From a virus, in the IMG/VR virus record IMGVR_UViG_3300012314_000001: a DNA stretch of 64,000 nucleotides; one strand, 5' to 3'. Of the stretch, positions 3,506 through 43,886 are shown one piece after another; within the stretch, counting starts at the first letter, position 1, and every line of letters starts with the position of its first letter. The notes beneath the pieces were generated by a model, which was not told the origin of the DNA, searched no databases, and worked only from the letters and a program-made list of their open reading frames with translations. Position numbers and translations under genes: made by a program.

Positions 3506-3579
3506 ACCCTTGTAGCCCAAATGGCAGAGGCACTAGATTTAGGTTCTAGACAGTGTGGGTTCGAGTCCCACCAAGGGTA
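3506..3579 (+). tRNA. tRNA, atypical: anticodon loop tttaggt gives anticodon TAG (Leu codon CUA) but there is no long variable arm
   Basis: 7-bp acceptor stem acccttg/caagggt, T-arm gtgggTTCGAGTcccac, 5-bp anticodon stem ctaga/tctag. Confidence 0.55.
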
Positions 3580-3580
3580 T

Positions 3581-3652
3581 GGGAATGTCGTATAGTGGCT
3601 AATACGTCAGCCTTCCAAGCTGAAGACACGGGTTCGATTCCCGTCATTCCCT
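3581..3652 (+). tRNA. tRNA-Gly (anticodon TCC)
   Basis: Acceptor gggaatg/cattccc, anticodon stem tcagc/gctga with loop cttccaa, T-arm cgggTTCGATTcccg. Confidence 0.75.
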
Positions 3653-3698
3653 CTCACAGGCCCCACCTGTTTGGCTTAAAAATTGGGGCTTGTGTTTT

Positions 3699-3771
3699 GC
3701 CTCCGTGGCGCAATTGGTAGCGCAACGCACTTGTAATGCGTAGGTTGCGGGTTCGAGTCCCACCGGAGGCT
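3699..3771 (+). tRNA. tRNA-Thr (anticodon TGT)
   Basis: Acceptor gcctccg/cggaggc, anticodon stem acgca/tgcgt with loop cttgtaa, T-arm gcgggTTCGAGTcccac, followed by CCA. Confidence 0.75.
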
Positions 3772-3781
3772 CCAGATACTT

Positions 3782-4290: not shown

Positions 4291-5985
4291 GTGGGAAACC
4301 AACACGAAAGGCACAAACACGTGAAAAACACGCGCCACGCACGGCCACTTGCGCGAATCGCCGCAACCACAGCCGCCACAGCCCCCGCCACTACAGGACT
4401 TGCAATGCCTGCAGCAACCGCGGATGGGGCAAAGGATCTCCTGACTGATAACGCACACAATATCGCGGGTGGTGGTGCCAATATTCATGCTGACGACACA
4501 TGTGTGGAAAAGGTTGGCGACACAGCACACGTCAAATTCATGGCACAACACCAACCCCTTGTATACTCTTCGAATCACGACCAGACTTCGGCTTCGGGAA
4601 CACTAGCTATTCCCGCAAACATGGAAAACGTTAAAATTCGTATCAAAGCCGTCGGACACACGGGCGAAACAGACTTTCAAAACGCTCCTATCACTACAGA
4701 TATTTTCGACACTCCTATTGAAGTTCCTGTAGAAGAAGGGGATAACACAGGAACCGCAAAGGGTGTAGCTAACTTCACACCGCTGTACGAAGAGGGTGAG
4801 TTCATCGGCGGTAAGGAAAGTGTTGAAAAGAATATTGCAGACGGTGCTAAATTAGTTCGCCATCACCAGGCAGACCTTAAAGATGAGAGCGGGAATTTTA
4901 ACAACGAGAGCTTTCCATTCAGTTCCTATGGGGATTCGGACTTGCCTTGGTACGGACATCATGACGAAGAATATGACTTTTATGAATTCGGGAACCTTTA
5001 TGTTCCTTTGACCTTTGAGATTGAAGGTGACATCTCTACCGTAGGCGAAGATACGTTCGCTACCGCGGCGGTTTCTAATATCGGATGGAAGACGAGCTCT
5101 GAAGATAATTCAGGAGCTTATGAGCTAGGGGGGCAGTCACTCACGGAGTATACTCAATTCCGCCCTGGTGGCCTGCCCCCTGCCATGCCTGAAGACGAAG
5201 AAATGATCCAGGTGTATAAGGATAAATTGTCGGATGCTGGTTTGGATATTTCTTCGAATATTGCTCCCACTTCGGAAATTCCAGGTAATGCTAAGTATGC
5301 CCGTATTGGCAGTGATATTCGACCGTCTGCTCGTGGAGATGTGGGCAGGACTTATGTTGATCTGTTTTCTTTGAACGAAAATCGGGCTGTGACGTATCTT
5401 GGACAGGTTCCGGCGTCTGCTGAGGATGGTGCAGATGTGACTGCTGCTCATGTGACATTGTGTCCTGCTTCTGATACTCCGGAGACTGACGTACCAGAAA
5501 CCGAGACCCCAGAAACGGAGACCCCAGAGACTGAGACACCGGAAACTGAGACTCCAGAGACGGAGACACCGGAAACTGAGACTCCAGAGACGGAGACACC
5601 GGAAACTGAGACTCCAGAGACGGAGACACCGGAAACTGAGACTCCAGAGACGGAGACACCGGAAACTGAGACTCCAGAAACTGAAACACCGGAAACTGAG
5701 ACTCCAGAGACGGAGACCCCAGAGACTGAGACACCGGAGACCGAGACTCCAGAAACTGAAACACCGGAGACTGAAACCCCGGAGACCGAGACTCCAGAAA
5801 CCGAGACCTCGGAAATGACCACTGCCGCCCCGGCTGGTGACACCCCTGAGTCTGGAACCCCAACAGAATCTAACACCCGACACCTCGCCACTACCGGCGC
5901 AAGTGTTATCGGAATTGGTGTAGGAGCACTTGCACTCATTGGTGCCGGAACCTTCTTGGCTACCCGCCGTAAGAACCAAGCATAA
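4291..5985 (+). CDS. LAxTG cell-wall-anchored surface protein, paralog 1 (564 aa), with (ETP)n repeat stalk
   Basis: Conserved N-terminal block (NAHNIAGGGANIHADDTCVEKVGDTAHVKF) and C-terminal block (YEFGN..FEIEGD..TFATAAVSNIGW) shared with the next two genes. About 25 ETPET repeats. Ends LATTGAS + hydrophobic + RRKN. N-terminal leader is atypical (ARIAATTAATAPATTGLAMPAATA). Confidence 0.75.
   Translation: MGNQHERHKHVKNTRHARPLARIAATTAATAPATTGLAMPAATADGAKDLLTDNAHNIAGGGANIHADDTCVEKVGDTAHVKFMAQHQPLVYSSNHDQTSASGTLAIPANMENVKIRIKAVGHTGETDFQNAPITTDIFDTPIEVPVEEGDNTGTAKGVANFTPLYEEGEFIGGKESVEKNIADGAKLVRHHQADLKDESGNFNNESFPFSSYGDSDLPWYGHHDEEYDFYEFGNLYVPLTFEIEGDISTVGEDTFATAAVSNIGWKTSSEDNSGAYELGGQSLTEYTQFRPGGLPPAMPEDEEMIQVYKDKLSDAGLDISSNIAPTSEIPGNAKYARIGSDIRPSARGDVGRTYVDLFSLNENRAVTYLGQVPASAEDGADVTAAHVTLCPASDTPETDVPETETPETETPETETPETETPETETPETETPETETPETETPETETPETETPETETPETETPETETPETETPETETPETETPETETPETETPETETPETETPETETSEMTTAAPAGDTPESGTPTESNTRHLATTGASVIGIGVGALALIGAGTFLATRRKNQA
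5470..5812. repeat. tandem 15-nt repeats (gagac(c/t)ccagaaac(c/t)) encoding (ETPET)n
   Basis: Visible periodic DNA repeat inside the CDS. Confidence 0.85.
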
Positions 5986-28023: not shown

Positions 28024-28152
28024 GGGTTTAGTGTAGCAGGGAGTTACCCCTTTTGCACAATAAAAACCAGTATTTAATAATCGTGTTTAGTTTTGAAAAG
28101 TTGACCACAATCAACTACACTAAAAAACAACCAACAACAAAAAGGAGACACC

Positions 28153-28581
28153 ATGGACCCCCACACCCTCAACCTCGCCTACCGAATCACCACAACCCAC
28201 ACCCCCATCCACCCCGACACCCTCAACACCACCGTCTACCTCACCAACATCATCGAAAAAATCACCACCGACACCTACGCCACCCCCACCACCTTCTACC
28301 CACACGACAACACGCTCAAAACCCAAGAAATCAACACGCTTACCCTCCACAACAACCACATCACCACCAACTCCTTCCGCCCCTACTTCATCGTGCCACC
28401 CACCCACTTAGACGACAGTATCGGCTTAGCAATCGCAGCTATCGGCACTCTCACCGCCCAAGAACTCAGCGCCACTATCACCAACACACCGCCCTATATT
28501 CATGCTGTGGAACAAGGAACCCCCATTAACCTTGACGAAGCGGCGGAATACTACACTCAGCTTTGGAACCCGAGCGCATAG
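28153..28581 (+). CDS. hypothetical Thr-rich protein (142 aa)
   Basis: Strong RBS aaaggagacacc before the ATG. Preferred over the overlapping His/Pro-rich ORF 28053-28529. Confidence 0.45.
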   Translation: MDPHTLNLAYRITTTHTPIHPDTLNTTVYLTNIIEKITTDTYATPTTFYPHDNTLKTQEINTLTLHNNHITTNSFRPYFIVPPTHLDDSIGLAIAAIGTLTAQELSATITNTPPYIHAVEQGTPINLDEAAEYYTQLWNPSA

Positions 28582-29238: not shown

Positions 29239-29718
29239 CTAAAGGCTTTCAAACGATATATCCTCGGCAATATCGCCGGGATCTAGAACAGGGTTTTCGG
29301 CCTGAACCGCCTTGTCCCACGCTGATCCCTTAATTTTTGTTGCCTCACAAACTTCTAGTGTCGATAGGTTGCGCGTTTTCTCCCATACACGAAGCAAAGC
29401 CACGTTTAGCTCAACGTCCTGGGACTTATCAGGCACAAATACTTTGCCAGAAGCAGTTTGGCAGTAGCGGGTGATTCGGCCTTGGGGATTGTCGGAGAAC
29501 TGGTTGGCAAGGGAGTGGAGTGCGGGGCCGTGTTCCCAGGTGCAATAAGGCTCGCCGATGAGTTCTCTGCCTGTATTTTTCTGATAATGAGTCTCAATAA
29601 GGAATACGATACGCTGCAACTTCGGAAGGTTCAGCGGACTATTATCACGAAAAGAAAACTCCAGCACACTGTTAGCAACATGTGTCGCAAAATACGCCAT
29701 GAAACGCCTCCTCCACAA
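29239..29718 (-). CDS. Panacea-domain (DUF4065, SocA/PanA antitoxin-like) protein
   Basis: KLQRIVFLIETHYQKNTGRELIGEPYCTWEHGPALHSL matches the Panacea core (KLQKLLYyaq....g.pl....f.aw.hGPV..ly). Confidence 0.6.
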   Translation of the reverse strand: MWRRRFMAYFATHVANSVLEFSFRDNSPLNLPKLQRIVFLIETHYQKNTGRELIGEPYCTWEHGPALHSLANQFSDNPQGRITRYCQTASGKVFVPDKSQDVELNVALLRVWEKTRNLSTLEVCEATKIKGSAWDKAVQAENPVLDPGDIAEDISFESL

Positions 29719-29757: not shown

Positions 29758-30813
29758 CTAATTATTCTCGTAGAACCAACTCGGAAGATTCCGCGGCTCA
29801 TCATCAGAACTGGAGCTGCTATTACCATTCGACCGCGGGGACTTCGTCACAGTAGTCGTCTCCGTCGTAGTCTGAACCTCAGCGTCAGCAACATCCTTTT
29901 CTAGCTGCTTAATGCGCTCATCCTTGTCCTTGACCCAGCCGTCACGTTCAGCAACCTTGCCTTCGGCGTCTTGTACTCGGCGGTTAAGGTCGTCCACCTG
30001 CTTTTGGAGATCCTCAGCGCTGTCACCAGAATCCGAGGCGTCCTTGGTGGCCTGATCGCGTTCCTTTACGAGCTTGTCTACTTCAGCTTGCAGTTCAGTG
30101 ACCTTTTGCTGGTTTTCTTCGTTTTCGTCTTCAGCGGACTTGTGGAAGGGGGAGCCGAGGGCAAGTAGGAGAATGGAGATGAGGGCTAGTATGCCGGTGG
30201 CGATAGCGAGGGCGGTGGACTTTTTGGAGGTGGAGTCGAGTTTTTCCTGATTTGCGTCTAGATCGTCTTCTACTTCCTTTAGTCGGGTAGTAAGTTCCCG
30301 GTTGTCTGCCTCCGCGGCGCGTAGCTTGTCTTTAGCGACGTCAAGAGAGGTGATGTTGCGGTTTCCGTCGGGGGAGTAATCTTCGTAGGTAGTGTTGCCG
30401 GGGAAAATTTGTTGCGGGGTATCTGGGTGGGTGTCTACGGGTGGGATGTTGGGGTCGGTGTTGTAGGAGTGGAAGATTTCGGTGGGTTGTTCTTCAGAGC
30501 GGTCGTAGTCGCGGTTGTAGTTGTTGCGTTCATGGCCGCGGTCAAAGTCACGGCGGTCTCCTCGGCGGGGGTCGTTGTTGAATTCACGGTCATCATAAGG
30601 GTCGTAGTTGTTGTCTGCCCGGTATTCTTGTTCGCTGCGGTTGGTGTAGTTGTCGTTGCGATGGAGGTCGCGGTTATTGTGGGGGTAGCGGCGTGCGTTT
30701 CCTTGTGCCGAGTTGTTGTTTTGTACATCGCCCATGTTTTTGTGGGGTCCGTAGGTTTGGCGGTATACGTCATTGAGTCGATCGTATTTTCCATTATCAT
30801 TCGGGTAGGTCAT
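29758..30813 (-). CDS. low-complexity N/D/R-rich protein with central TM helix and coiled-coil C-terminal half, immediately upstream of and co-oriented with the Panacea gene
   Basis: Start at the ATG with aaggaa RBS. TM segment ALAIATGILALISILLLALG. Heptad-like ELQAEVDKLVKERDQATKD... Confidence 0.45.
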   Translation of the reverse strand: MTYPNDNGKYDRLNDVYRQTYGPHKNMGDVQNNNSAQGNARRYPHNNRDLHRNDNYTNRSEQEYRADNNYDPYDDREFNNDPRRGDRRDFDRGHERNNYNRDYDRSEEQPTEIFHSYNTDPNIPPVDTHPDTPQQIFPGNTTYEDYSPDGNRNITSLDVAKDKLRAAEADNRELTTRLKEVEDDLDANQEKLDSTSKKSTALAIATGILALISILLLALGSPFHKSAEDENEENQQKVTELQAEVDKLVKERDQATKDASDSGDSAEDLQKQVDDLNRRVQDAEGKVAERDGWVKDKDERIKQLEKDVADAEVQTTTETTTVTKSPRSNGNSSSSSDDEPRNLPSWFYENN

Positions 30814-30937
30814 GGTGCTGATGTTCCTTCTGGGGTTATTTGTTGTTTGTGCCAACACTAGCAGGGTCTGGCGGTTGGCTCCAATTTTTCTTAAAACGAG
30901 TATATTTTAACATATTTAAATCTGATACCATGCACCC

Positions 30938-31636
30938 ATGGACTTTAACCACACCCCAGAACTCATACCCAACAACCTACCTCCAGCAGACAGACGATAC
31001 GCCCGACACGAACTCTTCCGAGCATTCCCCTGGGCAGTCTGGAACTCCAGCGCACTAGAAGGCTACAACTTCACCCTCAGCGAAGTCGAGTCCATCATTA
31101 ACGGCTACGCGCCCGGAAACTATCCTATTGACCACATCGATGACGTCCGCGGTATTGCCGCAGGATGGAAAACAGCCCTACAAGCCATGGATCAAGGGGA
31201 AGAAGCAGACGAAAATCTTGCCCGACAAATCAACTACGCCATCACACAAAAAACCAGCCTCGCGCCGGGCCAGTTCCGCGGCGAATCTACACACGTTCAT
31301 GGCGACGGCGGCAATGTACGCACCCCGCGGGGCTTGTATGTTGCGCCGCGCCCGGAAGAGATCAAACCCCTCTGGGACGACTTTGCTATTGACGACCCGG
31401 TGCAGCGCAGTTTCTTACGCATCCCTTTCATCGCCCGCCTGCAGCCTTTCTGGGACGGAAACAAACGCACAGCACTTATGCTCTCCGCAGTAGACCTCAT
31501 CAACAATGGCATGCCCCCGCTGATCGTGGAAAGCCACAACTTCGACCAATGGCACGACGCCCTTACCTGCCTATTCATTGACAACAACGCCGACCCAGTC
31601 CTCGAAGTACTCACCGGCTCCATTCTAAAAATGTAG
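30938..31636 (+). CDS. Fic/Doc-family protein with Doc-type motif in which the catalytic His is replaced by Gln (QPFWDGNKRTAL)
   Basis: Fic N-terminal region (WNSSALEGYNFTLSEVESIINGY). Core motif FWDGNKRTALML, compared with Doc HxFxDGNKRTAL. Codon CAG read at the His position. Confidence 0.65.
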   Translation: MDFNHTPELIPNNLPPADRRYARHELFRAFPWAVWNSSALEGYNFTLSEVESIINGYAPGNYPIDHIDDVRGIAAGWKTALQAMDQGEEADENLARQINYAITQKTSLAPGQFRGESTHVHGDGGNVRTPRGLYVAPRPEEIKPLWDDFAIDDPVQRSFLRIPFIARLQPFWDGNKRTALMLSAVDLINNGMPPLIVESHNFDQWHDALTCLFIDNNADPVLEVLTGSILKM

Positions 31637-31671: not shown

Positions 31672-32124
31672 ATGGACAACTACCAAAAATACGCCGAACA
31701 ATACAACCTCAACCACGAAGACTTCAAAAAATTCGCCGAAGTCTTTGTCAACACCGCCGCAAGCGAACACTACGTCTCCTACGACGTTAACGAAGAACCC
31801 GTCCTCGTCGACGACCTAGAATGGGCAGCACCTGACATCGGTGAAGGAATCGACGAAGACGACGCCATCGCTGCCATCGAAAACCACGACACCACCTTCA
31901 ACACACTCGCCGTATTTTTCCGCGACTACCAGCACGTACTTGACGACAAAGGCATCTCCTACCCCGAGTTCGCATCAGCACTTTACTGGGACCTAGAATG
32001 CGGAGACGACCAGGTAGAACAGCTCATTGGCGGTGAAGAAGGAAAAAAGATCTCCGCCCACGCCAACGATGCCGGATGGTGCGACTACTTCTTCATCGAC
32101 CACGGAACCCTCGGACTAGACTAA
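31672..32124 (+). CDS. hypothetical acidic protein (150 aa)
   Basis: ORF. Confidence 0.4.
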   Translation: MDNYQKYAEQYNLNHEDFKKFAEVFVNTAASEHYVSYDVNEEPVLVDDLEWAAPDIGEGIDEDDAIAAIENHDTTFNTLAVFFRDYQHVLDDKGISYPEFASALYWDLECGDDQVEQLIGGEEGKKISAHANDAGWCDYFFIDHGTLGLD

Positions 32125-32231: not shown

Positions 32232-32945
32232 ATGATCAAGAAAAAATTCCTACTGCCCTCTGCCCTAGCCGCCGCAGCACTCACCGGCGCAATCGTCGTA
32301 CCAACCTCACTCGCACAACCCCAAGACACTCCCACCGAATCCCACGCCCCCGAAAAGCCCGGCGCGGATGAAGATAAGGATAAGGAGTCTGTGGAGGATA
32401 CTGCGAAGAAGTCCACGGCGATCATTGCCCGTGTGCGTGCCACTATCCCCAAGCCGGATAAGGTAGAGCGCCTCAATTTGGATAGGTTCCGTGTTCCTGA
32501 TCCGCAGCCTGAACCGGAGCCGGTAGTCCCGCAGGAGACTGAAGAGGTTGTTGAGGATACGGAAGCGTCCGTACCGCAGCCAGAGTTCAATGTTCCTGTC
32601 AGTGACTACGGCAATGATGTTGTTGCCGCGGCCATGTCACGTATTGGCGCGCCGTACGTCTATGGTGCCACGGGCCCGGATTCGTTTGACTGCTCAGGTC
32701 TTGTGCAGTGGGCGTATGCTCAGGTAGGTAAGTCTGTGCCGCGTGTGTCTGATGCGCAGATCTGGGGTGGTACTCCGGTATCGCTAGAGGAGCTGCAGCC
32801 GGGCGACGTCGTGGGCTATTCTGGTGGCGGCCACGTGGGTATTTATATTGGTGACGGTCAGGTGGTTCATGCTCCGACTACTGGTCAGACGGTGACGGTG
32901 ATTGGTTTGCATGATATGCCGGTTGTGGGGGCTTCGCGCTACTAG
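32232..32945 (+). CDS. secreted NlpC/P60 family cell-wall peptidase
   Basis: Signal peptide. APYVYGATGPDSFDCSGLVQWAY...GDVVGYSGGGHVGIYIG...VHAP (Cys-His-His catalytic arrangement). Confidence 0.85.
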   Translation: MIKKKFLLPSALAAAALTGAIVVPTSLAQPQDTPTESHAPEKPGADEDKDKESVEDTAKKSTAIIARVRATIPKPDKVERLNLDRFRVPDPQPEPEPVVPQETEEVVEDTEASVPQPEFNVPVSDYGNDVVAAAMSRIGAPYVYGATGPDSFDCSGLVQWAYAQVGKSVPRVSDAQIWGGTPVSLEELQPGDVVGYSGGGHVGIYIGDGQVVHAPTTGQTVTVIGLHDMPVVGASRY

Positions 32946-33056
32946 GATAGTGCAGATTTTGTTTCCGTCGTACCTTTGTTGGGTGCGACGGTTTTTCTTT
33001 GTGTAGGTGCTAGACTTTTAGGGTAGTTGAAAAATTTTTCCTGAAAGGAAACAACC

Positions 33057-33370: not shown

Positions 33371-34972
33371 GTGGCCCGACAACGACGACACAACGCCCAA
33401 CCCATAGACAAACCCACACGAGAAGAAAAGAAACAAAAAACCACCCACCTTAAACGCACCATCATTCTCGTACTCTCCATTGTCCTTGTCGTTATCCTCA
33501 CCGCCGCGGTAGGCCTCTACGGTATCCGAGCGTTCCTTGGCACAGCACAAAGCTCCACCACCGTCAGCCTCGATACTGACGTTGATGATGAGTACAAGGT
33601 TGGCTCCGGCACACAAGACTCCGACAATAAAGGAAAAGGTCCAAAAGACGGGGCCATAGACTACCTGCTTGTGGGTGCGGATAGTCGCGTTGACATGCAG
33701 GGAAACCCTTTATCCCCGGAGATGGCGGAAAAACTACGCGCCGGGGATGTTGATACCACGAATACGGACGTGATTATGGTACTGCGTGTTGCTGCGGACG
33801 GGTCGCAGGCCTCAGCGGTGTCTATTCCGCGTGATACGTACATTAGTGACCGCCAGTTTGGTAATACGAAGATCAATGGTGTCTACGGTATGCACCAGGC
33901 GGACAAATTGTCTGAGTTGGGCAAGGATAATGCTGATGCGCAAAAACAGGCTGCGGACGCGGGTAGGCAGGGTCTTACTGAGGCTGTTGCAAACCTGACG
34001 GGTGTGACTGTGGATCATTATGTGGAAGTTGGTCTTGTAGGATTTTCTCTGTTTACGGACGCTGTGGGTGGAGTTGACGTGTGTTTGAATAACGCTACTG
34101 AAGATCCTATGACTGGGGCGTCGTTTCCTGCGGGTCAGCAGACTCTTGACGGTGCGGAGGCATTGTCTTTTGTACGTCAACGCTATGGGCTTGCTAATGG
34201 TGATTTGGATAGGGTGAAGCGTCAGCAAACGTATTTGACGTCGATGGGTAAGAAGCTTCTTTCTGCGGGTACGTTGACGAATCCGAAGAAGTTGAAGGGG
34301 TTGTTGGATGCAGTGGAGCAGTCTGTTGCGATTGACGATAACCTTAATCTTACTGAGGCCGCAACCACCTTATCGAAAATTGATCCCAGTAACATCACGT
34401 TTGAAACCATCCCCGTCATCACCATCGCCGGACACGGAGACCACGGCGAATCCGTCGTCGAAGTAGACACCCCCACCGTCCAAAACTTCTTCGCCGCCCG
34501 CGCAGGCTCCACCACACCCGACACCCCACGAACAGACAACCACGTCGACCCCCGCGGCGAAAAACTCCCCGAAGACATGGCCGTTATCGAATCCGTACCT
34601 TCTGCCCGAGTATTCTCCGTCGGCACTGACGAAGCCCCGGCGCGCGATGCCGCGAAACGACTCACTGACGACGGTATTGTAGTCACAGATGTGGCTATGG
34701 CACCGTCTAAGTGGTCGTCATCAGGTGGGCAGGTGCTGGTGCGCTCGTCGACAAAGTCTGCTCAGCGTATTGGCGAGCTTTTAGGACTGCCGGTGGTAGA
34801 GCAGCGATCCTTGCCGGAAGGTACTGTGGTTGCTCTTGTTGGTGCCCCATCGTCTGAGGTTCCCGCGGGCGAATTGGACTCTGGTGAGGCAGAAGAATTT
34901 GTGCCCTCTGCCCCGCCTGTGCAGTCTTCAGAAGCTACCAGTGTGGAACAAGGCGTGGTGTGTGTTAATTAA
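33371..34972 (+). CDS. LCP (LytR-CpsA-Psr) family cell-envelope phosphotransferase with C-terminal LytR_C-like domain
   Basis: GTG start with RBS aaaggaga. N-terminal cytoplasmic tail plus TM. DYLLVGADSR...IMVLRV...SIPRDTYI...VNGVYG...HYVEVGLVGFSLFTDAVGGVDV...LDGAEALSFVRQR. Confidence 0.85.
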   Translation: MARQRRHNAQPIDKPTREEKKQKTTHLKRTIILVLSIVLVVILTAAVGLYGIRAFLGTAQSSTTVSLDTDVDDEYKVGSGTQDSDNKGKGPKDGAIDYLLVGADSRVDMQGNPLSPEMAEKLRAGDVDTTNTDVIMVLRVAADGSQASAVSIPRDTYISDRQFGNTKINGVYGMHQADKLSELGKDNADAQKQAADAGRQGLTEAVANLTGVTVDHYVEVGLVGFSLFTDAVGGVDVCLNNATEDPMTGASFPAGQQTLDGAEALSFVRQRYGLANGDLDRVKRQQTYLTSMGKKLLSAGTLTNPKKLKGLLDAVEQSVAIDDNLNLTEAATTLSKIDPSNITFETIPVITIAGHGDHGESVVEVDTPTVQNFFAARAGSTTPDTPRTDNHVDPRGEKLPEDMAVIESVPSARVFSVGTDEAPARDAAKRLTDDGIVVTDVAMAPSKWSSSGGQVLVRSSTKSAQRIGELLGLPVVEQRSLPEGTVVALVGAPSSEVPAGELDSGEAEEFVPSAPPVQSSEATSVEQGVVCVN

Positions 34973-35836: not shown

Positions 35837-36460
35837 CTACAACTGTAGGTTTTTGATAACTTCTTCTGCTACTGTAGCAGGCTTGATGGTTTGTTCCTGG
35901 TTAGAGAGCACTGTCACAGCCACAGGGCCTTTTTGCACCGAATACACTGACCCCACACCACCCTCATTGTTCCAACTACCACGGCCACCATCCCAGCCTT
36001 TAGGCTTCATAGCGGGGCTTGTCCACTCGATCGGGGCGTAGTGGTTGACGGTAGTAATAGCGTCTTCCTTAGTGGGAAGGTGGCGCACAATAACTTGGAG
36101 CTGCGGCTGGTCGGGGTAGGACCAGAAAACGCAGGCTGGGGTGTCAAATCGTGTGTCTAGCCCAACGCCTAAAACTTTTTGGCCGTTAGTGTCTGCAACC
36201 CAGTCAGTGTTGAGATACGGGCATTCGTCCCACGCGTCCTTGGGTGGGATAATGGCACCTTCTTCGGGGATGAGACCGCCGTCTGGTTGTGGGGCGTTGG
36301 CGGCGGGGTCAACGGTAGTATCCTCTGCGTTAGGATCTTTAGTTTCTGACTCAATAAAATCAGGGCCCTTGTGCAGATGGTCAAAATAGCTGGTGGAGCA
36401 GCCAGAAAGGGTTACTGACAGTGCTACACACGCAGCAGCAAGAGTGGTTTTTGTGCGCAT
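35837..36460 (-). CDS. putative lipoprotein (about 207 aa)
   Basis: Start set at MRTKTTLAAACVALSVTLSGCS (lipobox LSGC) with RBS aagga. The longer ORF to 36547 would overlap the polymerase gene. Confidence 0.5.
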   Translation of the reverse strand: MRTKTTLAAACVALSVTLSGCSTSYFDHLHKGPDFIESETKDPNAEDTTVDPAANAPQPDGGLIPEEGAIIPPKDAWDECPYLNTDWVADTNGQKVLGVGLDTRFDTPACVFWSYPDQPQLQVIVRHLPTKEDAITTVNHYAPIEWTSPAMKPKGWDGGRGSWNNEGGVGSVYSVQKGPVAVTVLSNQEQTIKPATVAEEVIKNLQL

Positions 36461-36473
36461 AGTGTCCTGATCC

Positions 36474-38444
36474 TTAAACGTACATCCAGTGGTCACCCAT
36501 GAAGTTAGCGTCCGAGCCGAGAAAAACTTCACGGCCCGCAGCAGCATTAAGCCAGTCTGGTGGGGTGACCATGATTTCTTGGATTTCTTTTTCTGCCTCC
36601 GAGTCTACAACAAGCTCATCGTGAATAGCGAGAATGATGGCGTCATCGAGGCCTGCTTTGTGGATATTGTTGATTGTTTCCGACAGCATGGAGTAGGCGG
36701 TTCCTTGCACAATGTAGTTCATGGCGCGGTAGCCCACATACGGGTCGGTATCCCAGGGCCTGTTATTGTCGGGGAAGTTTTCTGGCACGGTCAAACCACG
36801 CCCGTCAACGGTGCGGATAAATCCTTGTTTGCCTGCGACGTTTTTAACCCGGTTGAGGAAATCAACGGTGGGCTGCATGGCGGCGTTGTACTGGTTTTTA
36901 ATGTTGGTGGCTTCATCTAGAGATACACCTAAGTTGGACGCCAACAGAGCCTTTCCTTGGCCGTACATATTCGCCAGCACCACTGTTTTTGCTTTTTTGC
37001 GGCCTGGGTGGTCTTTGGCTTCCTTTTCGCTAAGTTCTTGTGGGATAAGGCCCGCGATTTTAGCGGAAGGGATGTACAAGTCGCCGCCCTTATTAAAGTC
37101 AACAAGGTAGTCAAAATCGTGTGCCACGTTGGTAAGCACAACAGGCTCAATGGACGACCAGTCAATGGATGTCCAAGATCGTCCTGGATCGGCATGCAAA
37201 ATAGGTCGGGCACGATCCGGGAATTGCTGAAGCTCAGGATAGCGGTAAGACATGCGGCCTGTGGCGTGAGCTCCAAGTACTCCTACCTCGGGGTGGACTC
37301 TGCCGGTAACATTTGCCATGGCAATGATTTTGTCCAAGTAGGTCAGAATCTTGTCGTGTTCTTTAAGGTCGGTGGCGAGTTTGATAAGTGGGTGGCCGAG
37401 TTTTTTGGTTTCCTTTTTCGACGCGGACAAGAGTCCCGATGCGGTAATCGGCCAGTCGGAGGGCAAACGGTCGGTGTAGTGCAGGTAGTTGATTACTTCC
37501 TGGGTGATTTTACCTGGTGAGGAGTCTAGGCCGAGGTCTTCAAAGACGGACATTTTCTCGTCCTTTGATTTTTCAAACTCGGCGCGGAAAGAGTGCGCGT
37601 AGTCCAAGTCGGCGTAGATACCAATAGCGGATCGTCGCATCATAACGTGGTTGGTGGTTTGTTCGCGTTGGATAAGGCGACGGATCTGGTCAGCGGGGTT
37701 TCCTGTAAATCCGGCAGATGGTGCGCGGTTGGCAAAGTCGCGTTGTTGGTTGTACACAGCATTGTACAGGGGGCGCAAAAGCCTCAGTGTAGCAACAGTA
37801 TCGGCCATGGCACCTGCCCGGTAGACGGGGTCAATAACAGTGGAGTTGCGGAAACCCATATCCGCTTTGGTGTATTTTTCACCAGTCACCTCATCTACTG
37901 CGGTTTCGTACCCCATGACTGCAAACGAGTCAGCAATTTTGCTGTTAATTTCTGGGAAGTTACAGAACTGGGTGGACAAAGTATCGAGGTCTCGACCGCC
38001 TTTTTGGGCAGTATTGTACATGCGGGCAAGAACAAGGGTGTCCCAAATTTTATAAATGTGGTCAAGTTCCATCAAACGGTTCTGGTACAGGCCAGGAACG
38101 TCGTAGGGGGCGTTATGGAGGACGAGGATTCCTGCGGCGTCAATAAGCGTAATGATTGCTTCGCGCTGGCCGGGGTTTCTAGGGTCAAGGAAGACGTTGA
38201 TGGTGCGGTTGTTTTCGTCCCATGCGGCGGTCACACAGCGGATGAAGAATTTTTCCAGGCCTTTGGTTTCAATATCAATGGCAACGGTCAGACCTACGGG
38301 TGGGTCTTGTTCGATTTTGTGTGCCGCATCTTGGGCAATGTAGCAGTGTGCTTGGGTGGTGGGGTTGTAGTAGGTGTCGCTGTCTGCCCCGAATGTGGAG
38401 TGAGGGAGGGTGAGGGTTCTTTCGGGGATGGGGAGGTGCGGCAT
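36474..38444 (-). CDS. family A (Pol I-like) DNA polymerase with N-terminal 3'-5' proofreading exonuclease, phage/plasmid type
   Basis: Exonuclease motifs AIDIETKGL and LVLHNAPYDVPGL. Polymerase motif B RKKAKTVVLANMYGQG and motif C ILAIHDELVVD. Confidence 0.8.
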   Translation of the reverse strand: MPHLPIPERTLTLPHSTFGADSDTYYNPTTQAHCYIAQDAAHKIEQDPPVGLTVAIDIETKGLEKFFIRCVTAAWDENNRTINVFLDPRNPGQREAIITLIDAAGILVLHNAPYDVPGLYQNRLMELDHIYKIWDTLVLARMYNTAQKGGRDLDTLSTQFCNFPEINSKIADSFAVMGYETAVDEVTGEKYTKADMGFRNSTVIDPVYRAGAMADTVATLRLLRPLYNAVYNQQRDFANRAPSAGFTGNPADQIRRLIQREQTTNHVMMRRSAIGIYADLDYAHSFRAEFEKSKDEKMSVFEDLGLDSSPGKITQEVINYLHYTDRLPSDWPITASGLLSASKKETKKLGHPLIKLATDLKEHDKILTYLDKIIAMANVTGRVHPEVGVLGAHATGRMSYRYPELQQFPDRARPILHADPGRSWTSIDWSSIEPVVLTNVAHDFDYLVDFNKGGDLYIPSAKIAGLIPQELSEKEAKDHPGRKKAKTVVLANMYGQGKALLASNLGVSLDEATNIKNQYNAAMQPTVDFLNRVKNVAGKQGFIRTVDGRGLTVPENFPDNNRPWDTDPYVGYRAMNYIVQGTAYSMLSETINNIHKAGLDDAIILAIHDELVVDSEAEKEIQEIMVTPPDWLNAAAGREVFLGSDANFMGDHWMYV

Positions 38445-39011: not shown

Positions 39012-40139
39012 CTACCTACATCCCAAAAGAGATGCAGGATTTACGCTATCATCAACGGAAGGGTTGAAACCAGCCCTTAACAGCATATTACGTGCCGCAT
39101 TAACATCACGATCAATAGTGGTACCACAAAAGTCACAATGAAAAACTCTTGTACCCAGATCTAACTTGGCCTTGGCTCTCGTACCACAGTTAGAACAATC
39201 CATCGTCGTGTAATGAGGATCAATAACAAAAACGTCACTGCCGAATGTTTGGCACGCAGAGATAAGCTCCCGCTTTGCAATACCAATACCAATATCGGCA
39301 GACTTTTTTGCCATATTTTTCTTCTTAAACAAAAACGTCGACTTAAAATCCTCCACAGCAACAGTCTTATTGTGACGAGCTACATGCTGAGCCCATTTAC
39401 GAGACTGTTCCCGCCTTTGTCTTTTTACTCGACGCTCCAGCTTGGCTTTCTTCTTTTTAGCCTTACGATACTTCTCCCACTCTTGTTTGGCTTTAAGACG
39501 AGCCATTCGACGCTGATATTTAGCTAACGCTTTGGCGTTTTCTTTAACACGTGGTGTGTATCCTAAATCGAAACCAGGACGGGAGGTTGTTGCTGGGGTT
39601 TTAACTCCCCAGTCAATGCCGATCTGTCCGTCATTGTCACGAGAACGTGTTTGTGGTTCAGTGTCTACAACAAAAGACGCCCACCAGTCACCGCACGAGT
39701 CTTTAAACACTCGTACAGAACTTGGTTCAGACGGAAGGTTTCTAGACCACACCACAGGGATAACAATGTTTCCTGCTAGTTTTAGTCGCCCAGCTTTGGT
39801 GATGCTAAATCCTCGTGTGGTGTAGTTGAGTGAGGGTTTGTGGATTCGTTTTGATTTAAAGCGTGGGGCTTTACGAATCTTGTTGAAGAATGCTTTTTTA
39901 GCAGTTATGAAGTCCCTAACTATTTGTTGTTGGGGAACTACTGGCTGATCACGTAGCCATTCGTGTTCTTTTCGCCATGTAGTTACTTGTTTCATTAGGG
40001 AGGTTTGGTTTGTGTTTTCGCGTTTGTTGAACACTTCTACACACTGATTCCAAATCCAACGACACGTAGCATACTGCTGGTTAAGACTGTGTTGTGCAGT
40101 CTTTCCAGGTCGTAATTTGTACGTGTAGCGTTTCTTCAC
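39012..40139 (-). CDS. tnpB: TnpB (IS605 OrfB-type RuvC-like, RNA-guided nuclease family)
   Basis: RuvC-I IGIDWGVKT. C-terminal zinc finger CSNCG...CDFCG. RuvC-III DRDVNAARNM. 375 aa. Confidence 0.8.
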   Translation of the reverse strand: MKKRYTYKLRPGKTAQHSLNQQYATCRWIWNQCVEVFNKRENTNQTSLMKQVTTWRKEHEWLRDQPVVPQQQIVRDFITAKKAFFNKIRKAPRFKSKRIHKPSLNYTTRGFSITKAGRLKLAGNIVIPVVWSRNLPSEPSSVRVFKDSCGDWWASFVVDTEPQTRSRDNDGQIGIDWGVKTPATTSRPGFDLGYTPRVKENAKALAKYQRRMARLKAKQEWEKYRKAKKKKAKLERRVKRQRREQSRKWAQHVARHNKTVAVEDFKSTFLFKKKNMAKKSADIGIGIAKRELISACQTFGSDVFVIDPHYTTMDCSNCGTRAKAKLDLGTRVFHCDFCGTTIDRDVNAARNMLLRAGFNPSVDDSVNPASLLGCR

Positions 40140-43790: not shown

Positions 43791-43813
43791 TAAAATCCTC
43801 CTAGGCGTCTAAG

Positions 43814-43886
43814 CTCCCTCAACTGGGCTCGAACCAGTGACCCTTCGATTAACAGTCGAATGCTCTGCCAACTGAGCTATGAGGGA
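43814..43886 (-). tRNA. tRNA-Asn (anticodon GTT)
   Basis: Reverse complement: acceptor tccctca/tgaggga, D-arm gctcagttggcagagc, anticodon stem ttcga/tcgaa with loop ctgttaa, T-arm actggTTCGAGCccagt. Confidence 0.75.

Follow-up and report, generated by a model that had tools for sequence, protein, structure and literature searches.

A Fic protein from a phage-like element with glutamine at the catalytic histidine position

Fic enzymes are defined by a catalytic histidine. The stretch of viral DNA analysed here, 64,000 nucleotides (nt) from IMG/VR record IMGVR_UViG_3300012314_000001 and called the window throughout, encodes a Fic-domain protein that, by alignment, carries a glutamine (Gln169) exactly at that position. 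The Gln-type Fic gene occupies positions 30938–31636 of the plus strand, with its ATG at 30938 and the stop codon included in the interval. It specifies 232 residues containing the peptide RLQPFWDGNKRTAL, and its description draws on the open reading frame (ORF) list, Pfam and PHROG matches, an AlphaFold2 model and Foldseek. Gln169 is encoded by CAG (31442–31444). We consider it fairly probable that the product is an intact class II Fic protein of mobile elements, maintained by selection, that serves as a binder or regulator with no histidine-dependent transfer and is not a toxin in decay.

The register of the active site is the same in each alignment. PF02661, the Pfam Fic profile, matches residues 92–183 with 32.3 bits (E = 1.8e-7), above its gathering score of 24, and sets Gln169 in the histidine column. 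In a phmmer search of the PDB, QPFWDGNKRTAL pairs column by column with HPFIDGNGRTSR of human FICD and HPFTDGNGRTAR of C. elegans FIC-1, which again puts Gln169 in the column of the catalytic histidine. A profile built from 118 family sequences matches FICD at E = 1e-18 across profile positions 20–206, nearly the whole length. The active-site loop, Q169-P-F-W-D-G-N-K-R-T-A-L180 (31442–31477, plus strand; read from the sequence, with the register taken from the PDB and profile alignments), retains the Fic motif positions F171, D173, G174, N175, K176 and R177 in full. It deviates in three respects: glutamine stands at the first position, where the motif has its invariant catalytic histidine; a Doc-like lysine replaces the second glycine; and the second arginine is gone, with Leu180 in its place. 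A sequence-only reading of this DNA had described a Fic core with glutamine for the catalytic histidine, and that description is borne out by the Pfam, PDB and family-profile alignments and by superposition of the AlphaFold2 model in Foldseek. The protein also matches phrog_11900, a family of unknown function, at E = 9e-25.

A sequencing error at the codon, which had been considered in the same reading, is excluded because an identical 232-residue protein is encoded on eight metagenomic contigs, which come from at least four different assemblies. Homologues that are 94% and 68% identical also have glutamine here and use the same codon, CAG. Beyond these close relatives, glutamine recurs across the family. 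Our first homologue search returned 11 proteins, and glutamine is present in all nine that span the motif region (27–94% identity); the remainder consists of P0008, apparently frameshifted, and of truncated copies that still keep the motif. A genome scan that sampled one genome per species found 80 loci, 76 of which have Q-x-F-x-DGNKRT in the matched gene. These 76 span Corynebacterium, Bifidobacterium, Collinsella, Enterococcus, Lactobacillaceae, Veillonella, Erysipelotrichaceae, Anaeroplasma, Spirochaetaceae and others. The four exceptions are the two weakest matches, which have histidine and are canonical Doc-like, one locus with cysteine and one with no visible motif.

Larger searches gave the same picture. 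At least 5660 family clusters at 90% identity were recovered with E ≤ 1e-3 by profile search, and glutamine is present in all 119 motif-bearing proteins among the matches listed. When 1.84 billion representatives at 50% identity were searched exhaustively with HMMER, 395 proteins reached E ≤ 1e-30 and 1816 reached E ≤ 1e-10. Among representatives that share less than 50% mutual identity and fit the motif pattern, 111 of 113 have glutamine; 35 further representatives fall outside the pattern, some being truncated and some full length with a diverged loop. Taxonomically the family extends over Actinomycetota and Bacillota, and it is also found on plasmids and viral contigs.

Conservation at individual positions was counted in an hmmalign alignment of 268 family sequences. 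Glutamine occupies position 169 in 244 of 251 sequences (97%), and no other residue occurs there more than twice. Histidine is found in only 2/251, both times in a degenerate loop that lacks either the lysine or the aspartate and arginine. Comparable constancy is seen along the rest of the loop (D173, 239/251; G174, 240/251; N175, 250/251; K176, 241/251; R177, 242/251) and at two positions outside it, E41 (251/256) and R114 (260/264). Position 180, a leucine in the window protein, is mostly L, M, T, Q, I or F in the family, and arginine is not among its seven commonest residues. Both glutamine codons are used across loci (CAG 53, CAA 37). The Fic gene is under purifying selection, with ratios of non-synonymous to synonymous substitution (dN/dS) of 0.095 and 0.175 against the 94%- and 68%-identical homologues, respectively.

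The alignments thus mark the Gln clade as very large and old, with a glutamine that is fixed and not a fresh lesion. The sequence-only reading had raised the option of a toxin recently inactivated by mutation, and the gene might be taken for such a pseudogene because CAG lies one substitution from CAC or CAT and no Phd-like gene is adjacent. This option is refuted by the family-wide fixation of glutamine through both CAG and CAA, by dN/dS of about 0.1, by an intact ORF that is identical on eight contigs and by retention of glutamine in the 94%- and 68%-identical homologues, and we give it a negligible probability. The near-total invariance of the glutamine, the phosphate-binding loop and Glu41 points instead to a preserved, specialised site and not to a relaxed, dead one.

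The AlphaFold2 model, computed from the 118-sequence alignment (pLDDT 92.1, pTM 0.91), consists of an all-helical core and a β-hairpin at residues 126–135. Foldseek ranks FICD structures first in the PDB (E = 1e-9, TM 0.70–0.73, probability 1.00), followed by BT_2513, C. elegans FIC-1, C. difficile Fic and Shewanella SoFic. The hairpin (31313–31342, plus strand), in which DSSP assigns strands at residues 126–129 and 132–135 of the model, is the equivalent of the Fic 'flap', the element that docks the target peptide. A G-x-F-R motif containing R114 lies ahead of the hairpin, and P137 and P139 are also conserved; these features align with GRFR...IPPHP of FICD. The segment S37-S-A-L-E41-G42 (31046–31063, plus strand) corresponds to the inhibitory-helix motif (S/T)xxxE(G/N). 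In the phmmer alignment to the PDB, residues 36–43 (N-S-S-A-L-E-G-Y) fall on T-V-A-I-E-G-N of FICD, which includes the inhibitory glutamate E234.

In the canonical class II motif, the second arginine pairs with the inhibitory glutamate and with the γ-phosphate of ATP. Measured against the class II scheme of Engel et al. 2012, as summarised in PMC5651007, the window protein has the (S/T)xxxE(G/N) motif and lacks the second arginine of HxFx(D/E)GNGRxxR. The family profile matches C. difficile Fic at E = 1e-7; its matches to Doc structures reach only E = 0.1–0.3 and cover about 40 residues, the motif alone. TIGR01550 (DOC_P1) scores 13.6 bits over 24 loop residues, below its cut-off of 38.65 bits. 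Judged from these alignments and the predicted model, the scaffold is that of a class II, FICD-like Fic and not of Doc, and the loop alone is Doc-like, with lysine after the asparagine and the second arginine missing. The label Doc/Fic that the sequence-only reading had applied survives in part: membership of the Fic superfamily stands, and the Doc assignment is imprecise in view of the profile and TIGR01550 scores and of the presence of the flap and the inhibitory-helix motif. Because the inhibitory helix is built in, no separate antitoxin is expected, and the lack of one is not anomalous. It had been noted that no Phd-like gene is adjacent, and this holds: there is no Phd-like Pfam match near the Fic gene in the window, the upstream neighbour is a divergent gene for a 366-residue protein on the minus strand, and the nearest antitoxin-type gene, a SocA/Panacea ORF (29239–29718), lies on the opposite strand behind that gene.

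Replacement of the histidine by glutamine has been known in silico since 2015, and the window protein is a further member of the group concerned. Khater and Mohanty (2015, Sci Rep 5:10804, PMC4454073) grouped 45 bacterial proteins of a single domain as clade D2, with Qx[F|Y]x[D|E][G|V]NKR as the consensus, argued that selection has retained the clade, and placed it within 'Doc'. The window loop, QPFWDGNKR, fits this consensus, and the 232-residue protein likewise has a single Fic domain; we infer that it belongs to clade D2 from the shared diagnostic motif only. The family as seen here differs from the 2015 description in its size (thousands of clusters against 45 sequences), in its scaffold (FICD-like class II with flap and inhibitory-helix motif against 'Doc') and in its inclusion of phage and plasmid members and of members fused to an XRE-type helix-turn-helix (HTH) domain. 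That in-silico description is all that we found on the Gln clade in the literature; we found no experimental work on it. The present analysis adds that the clade is far larger than reported, class II and FICD-like, and frequent on plasmids and phage-like elements, that its invariant inhibitory-helix glutamate has no arginine partner, and that it contains HTH-fused and HipA-linked subclades.

The class II AMP transferases (FICD/HYPE, PDB 4U04 and 6I7G; C. difficile Fic, 4X2E; SoFic, 3EQX) have the same fold as the window protein (Foldseek TM 0.6–0.73) and have in common with it the N-terminal (S/T)xxxE(G/N) helix, the G-x-F-R flap region and the F-x-D-G-N-x-R loop. The window protein departs from them in having glutamine for histidine and GNK for GNG, in missing the second arginine that would pair with the glutamate, and in carrying neither a TPR nor a winged-helix extension; identity to these enzymes is only 15–20%. 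Doc of the phage P1 phd-doc system (PDB 3K33, 3DD7) resembles it in the lysine and arginine that follow the asparagine (D-G/A-N-K-R-T-A-L) and in the missing second arginine. However, Doc comprises about 126 residues in PDB chains, compared with 232 here. By published descriptions, Doc lacks both the flap hairpin and an inhibitory helix of its own, its catalytic histidine is His66, and it is neutralised by Phd, which is encoded upstream. In the window protein the lysine of the Doc catalytic pair is present (K176), Gln169 replaces the histidine, and the Phd gene is absent. Work by Castro-Roa et al. in 2013 (cited in PMC4454073) is said to have associated the Doc lysine with an inverted ATP orientation and with phosphoryl instead of AMP transfer, and by analogy a Doc-like inverted orientation may occur in Gln-type Fic.

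A precedent of another kind is Fic1 of Campylobacter fetus, a class II Fic on a mobile element that acts as the antitoxin of the degenerate toxin Fic2 (PMC5651007). The likeness is that of a class II Fic that works chiefly by binding and neutralising a second protein, not by modifying a target. Fic1 differs in having the canonical histidine motif and in lying in tandem with fic2, whereas no second Fic or Doc gene that the Gln-type protein might neutralise was found in the window and no conserved neighbour of Gln-type Fic emerged across 87 loci when ORFs within 4 kb were clustered.

The binder or regulator that we favour can be described in terms of the residues that are kept and lost. Preservation of the flap and of the Asp, Asn, Lys and Arg of the loop suggests that binding of a nucleotide, or of another phosphate ligand, together with Mg2+ is probably retained, as is docking of a target segment. 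With the histidine general base missing, normal transfer of AMP or phosphoryl groups to a hydroxyl would not be expected. Its place could then be in conflicts of mobile elements with their hosts, where it would bind or regulate, in a nucleotide-dependent way, a target of the host or of a rival element, or would at most be a slow or chemically different enzyme. The plasmid and PHROG matches speak for such a setting, as do the fusions to XRE-type HTH, ToxN and PD-(D/E)XK domains, the abutting HipA-like kinase genes and the toxin–antitoxin genes beside Gln-type Fic on a Ligilactobacillus plasmid. A catalytically dead Fic repurposed for binding or regulation, which the sequence-only reading had named as one option, is possible, and the antitoxin role of the class II protein Fic1 sets the precedent for binding (PMC5651007).

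Several considerations weigh against this proposal. That the protein would bind a nucleotide and a target and would fail at transfer is argued from conservation and from other Fic enzymes. A simple loss of catalysis predicts a scatter of substitutions, which is not seen at the nearly invariant glutamine; a catalytic or water-positioning role would fit the alignments at least equally well. Some chromosomal copies sit among housekeeping genes (a Ger operon, a tRNA methyltransferase, ExoVII), and given such neighbours a role limited to mobile-element conflict is not established. Among PADLOC models, which come without thresholds, the window protein matches SoFic partially at E = 2e-10 and PDC-S04 weakly (E = 1e-6, 8e-5 and 1.5e-3), and PDC-S04, a candidate of this weak similarity, was without defence activity in the one native-host test that we found.

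The main competing view is of an active enzyme whose chemistry has been altered: Glu41 would act as the base, Gln169 would orient water or substrate and Lys176 would impose a Doc-like inverted ATP. Such an enzyme would hydrolyse nucleoside triphosphates (NTPs), take a modification off its substrate, or carry out transfer to a nucleophile for which a histidine base is not required. Catalytic glutamines are known from Ras-like GTPases and from the Q-loops of ABC transporters. The strong purifying selection, the intact metal- and phosphate-binding residues and a glutamine with no competing residue above two occurrences all speak for such an enzyme. So does Glu41, which is 98% invariant though its salt-bridge partner, the second arginine, is missing family-wide; because this canonical partner is absent, classical autoinhibition cannot explain the conservation of the glutamate. 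A glutamine too invariant for mere loss of function, together with a glutamate kept without its arginine, suggests that the two residues act as a pair in activating water or some other nucleophile. The view that the clade may not be dead is shared by Khater and Mohanty (PMC4454073). On the other hand, the glutamine and glutamate could have a structural role, and published mechanistic work on FICD reportedly finds that deAMPylation still needs the histidine. We therefore view altered chemistry as doubtful but deserving of serious attention; computation does not separate it from the binder or regulator. The further proposal that these proteins form a distinct catalytic Fic class, in which Glu41 and Gln169, acting on a nucleotide inverted as in Doc, activate either water or a nucleophile other than a hydroxyl, seems to us unlikely. 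If it were true, phages and plasmids could use the family, as an NTPase switch or to erase phosphorylation or AMPylation, against host Fic, Doc or HipA-type toxins, and the members that adjoin HipA or are fused to an HTH would be forms in which this activity is regulated.

A genuine but weak AMP- or phospho-transferase toxin, with glutamine as a poor base and restraint supplied by its own inhibitory helix, strikes us as very improbable. Residual activity has been described for H-to-A mutants of IbpA and for a His-to-Gln mutant of alcohol dehydrogenase (both cited in PMC4454073), the class II architecture with its (S/T)xxxE(G/N) motif would suit a self-restrained enzyme of this sort, and toxin-type genes (ToxN, HipA) are fused to some members or lie beside them. 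Reversion to histidine, which needs a single transversion, would be expected of a weakened transferase, yet histidine is almost never regained, and both sequences that have it carry degenerate loops; this makes residual transfer, which Khater and Mohanty had proposed, the less likely explanation. The 87 loci also show no cognate antitoxin or conserved partner, and the C. fetus toxins Fic2 and Fic3 lost toxicity when their histidine was changed to alanine (PMC5651007).

The clade replaces histidine by an invariant glutamine and keeps the other active-site residues, and many of its members reside on enterococcal and lactobacillus plasmids and on phage-like elements. In databases these proteins are labelled 'Fic family protein', a name that implies AMPylation. 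For Gln members this activity is probably impossible, to judge from their active-site residues, which leaves a sizeable blind spot. The function of one member would re-annotate the clade and would decide between histidine-independent Fic chemistry and pseudoenzyme-type binding in conflicts. The window copy itself adds little beyond a clean, well-modelled, phage-borne example, and it gives no handle on mechanism.

Genes of the subfamily mostly stand alone, on phages, on plasmids or on chromosomal islands in Gram-positive bacteria. A cognate partner or antitoxin gene was considered for the family and rejected, since there is no universal neighbour and those that recur are specific to subclades. 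By tblastn, 404 plasmid records match, and glutamine is present in the three of three that were inspected. On a plasmid of Enterococcus casseliflavus the gene order is tyrosine recombinase, Fic, AAA ATPase and helicase; in seven genome loci, too, a tyrosine recombinase lies immediately upstream of Fic. A Ligilactobacillus plasmid has SocA and a hypothetical gene, then MazEF, then Fic, with a relaxase and a surface-exclusion gene adjoining. HipA-like (HipA_C-type) kinase genes abut or overlap Gln-type Fic by about 10 nt in five loci from Bifidobacteriaceae, Collinsella and Veillonella (L033, 8659–10780; L039, 2387–4452; L011, 4150–6336; L025; L031), which suggests that the kinase and the Fic protein form a two-gene module in that subclade. 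C-terminal fusions to an XRE-type HTH domain are common among the best profile matches. Rare fusions to ToxN, PD-(D/E)XK nuclease or DUF6710 domains were also seen (P0203, 600 residues; P0157, 449 residues; P0201, 460 residues), and these may be artefacts of metagenomic gene calling.

In the window, the Fic gene sits in a phage-like element and not in a host defence island. DNA polymerase A (36474–38444, minus strand) is 40–42% identical to the polymerases of Gordonia, Corynebacterium and Nocardia phages. There are four tRNA genes in total, a cluster for Leu(TAG), Gly(TCC) and Thr(TGT) at 3506–3774 on the plus strand and a separate tRNA-Asn(GTT) at 43813–43886 on the minus strand. RecE-like, exonuclease and FtsK-like genes are also present, and most ORFs are orphans. 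Together these features suggest that the window is part of a large actinophage or phage-plasmid. A scan of IMG/VR returned only four weak relatives, and 16 kb of the window, compared with plasmids by megablast, had no match. The 94%-identical Fic homologue is on a syntenic contig (L095) that also carries a RusA gene, and the scaffold of the 68%-identical homologue (L084), 221 kb long, includes an AntA/ANT antirepressor gene.

The Fic gene is probably co-transcribed with two genes that follow it on the plus strand, one for an acidic orphan protein and one for an NlpC/P60 hydrolase. The acidic protein (31672–32124) starts 35 nt past the Fic stop codon and has 150 residues, with an isoelectric point of 4.05 and 35 Asp and Glu residues against 7 Lys and Arg. 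It has no match in Pfam, PHROG or PADLOC, and its charge profile recalls DNA-mimic or anti-restriction proteins. Its gene was seen only beside identical or 94%-identical Fic genes, and not at the 68%-identical locus or elsewhere; being confined to these elements, it was rejected as a conserved Fic partner. The peptidoglycan hydrolase gene (32232–32945; Pfam NLPC_P60, E = 4e-21) is the last of the probable transcription unit, which is closed by an intrinsic-terminator-like hairpin of 11 pairs (7 G–C) followed by a T-run (32965–32991, plus strand), identified by a consensus scan only. The order Fic, acidic protein and NlpC/P60 is repeated in the loci L091–L093 and L095. Besides the hydrolase gene, the element holds further cell-envelope genes: a LytR-CpsA-Psr (LCP) ligase of 533 residues (33371–34972, plus strand) and a DUF2020 protein (35837–36547, minus strand). 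To our knowledge, an LCP gene is unusual on a phage or mobile element.

Upstream of the Fic gene, the divergent gene at 29758–30858 (minus strand) encodes the 366-residue protein, which is rich in Asn, Asp and Arg and carries a coiled coil. The SocA/Panacea antitoxin-domain gene (29239–29718, minus strand; Pfam E = 4e-9) follows 40 nt downstream of it, with a terminator-like hairpin (29747–29722) between them, and the two genes are kept together in L095. The arrangement looks like a Panacea-type toxin–antitoxin pair with an unrecognised toxin. The SocA/Panacea gene was rejected as a partner of Fic, since it is on the other strand and directly behind the 366-residue gene. By jackhmmer, Panacea genes occur near Gln-type Fic only in the window lineage, on one Ligilactobacillus plasmid and in one Corynebacterium metagenome-assembled genome (L075). 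The last of these has a Panacea gene at 4686–5258, followed at about 5550 by a canonical His-type Doc (GHHFGDGNKRTAL), and both types occur in this one locus, with the His-type Doc 5 kb from the Gln-type Fic.

Next to the DNA polymerase region of the window is a TnpB/IS605 OrfB-type gene (39012–40139, minus strand) with OrfB_IS605 and Cas12f1-like TNB domains. The RusA gene occupies the corresponding position in L095, so the TnpB gene may be an insertion. Long overlapping ORFs at 28053–28529 (plus), 28120–28407 (minus) and 30409–30861 (plus) lie opposite or beside real genes and have an extreme His/Pro/Thr or Gly/Val content; most likely they do not code for protein and merely mirror a biased composition of the strands.

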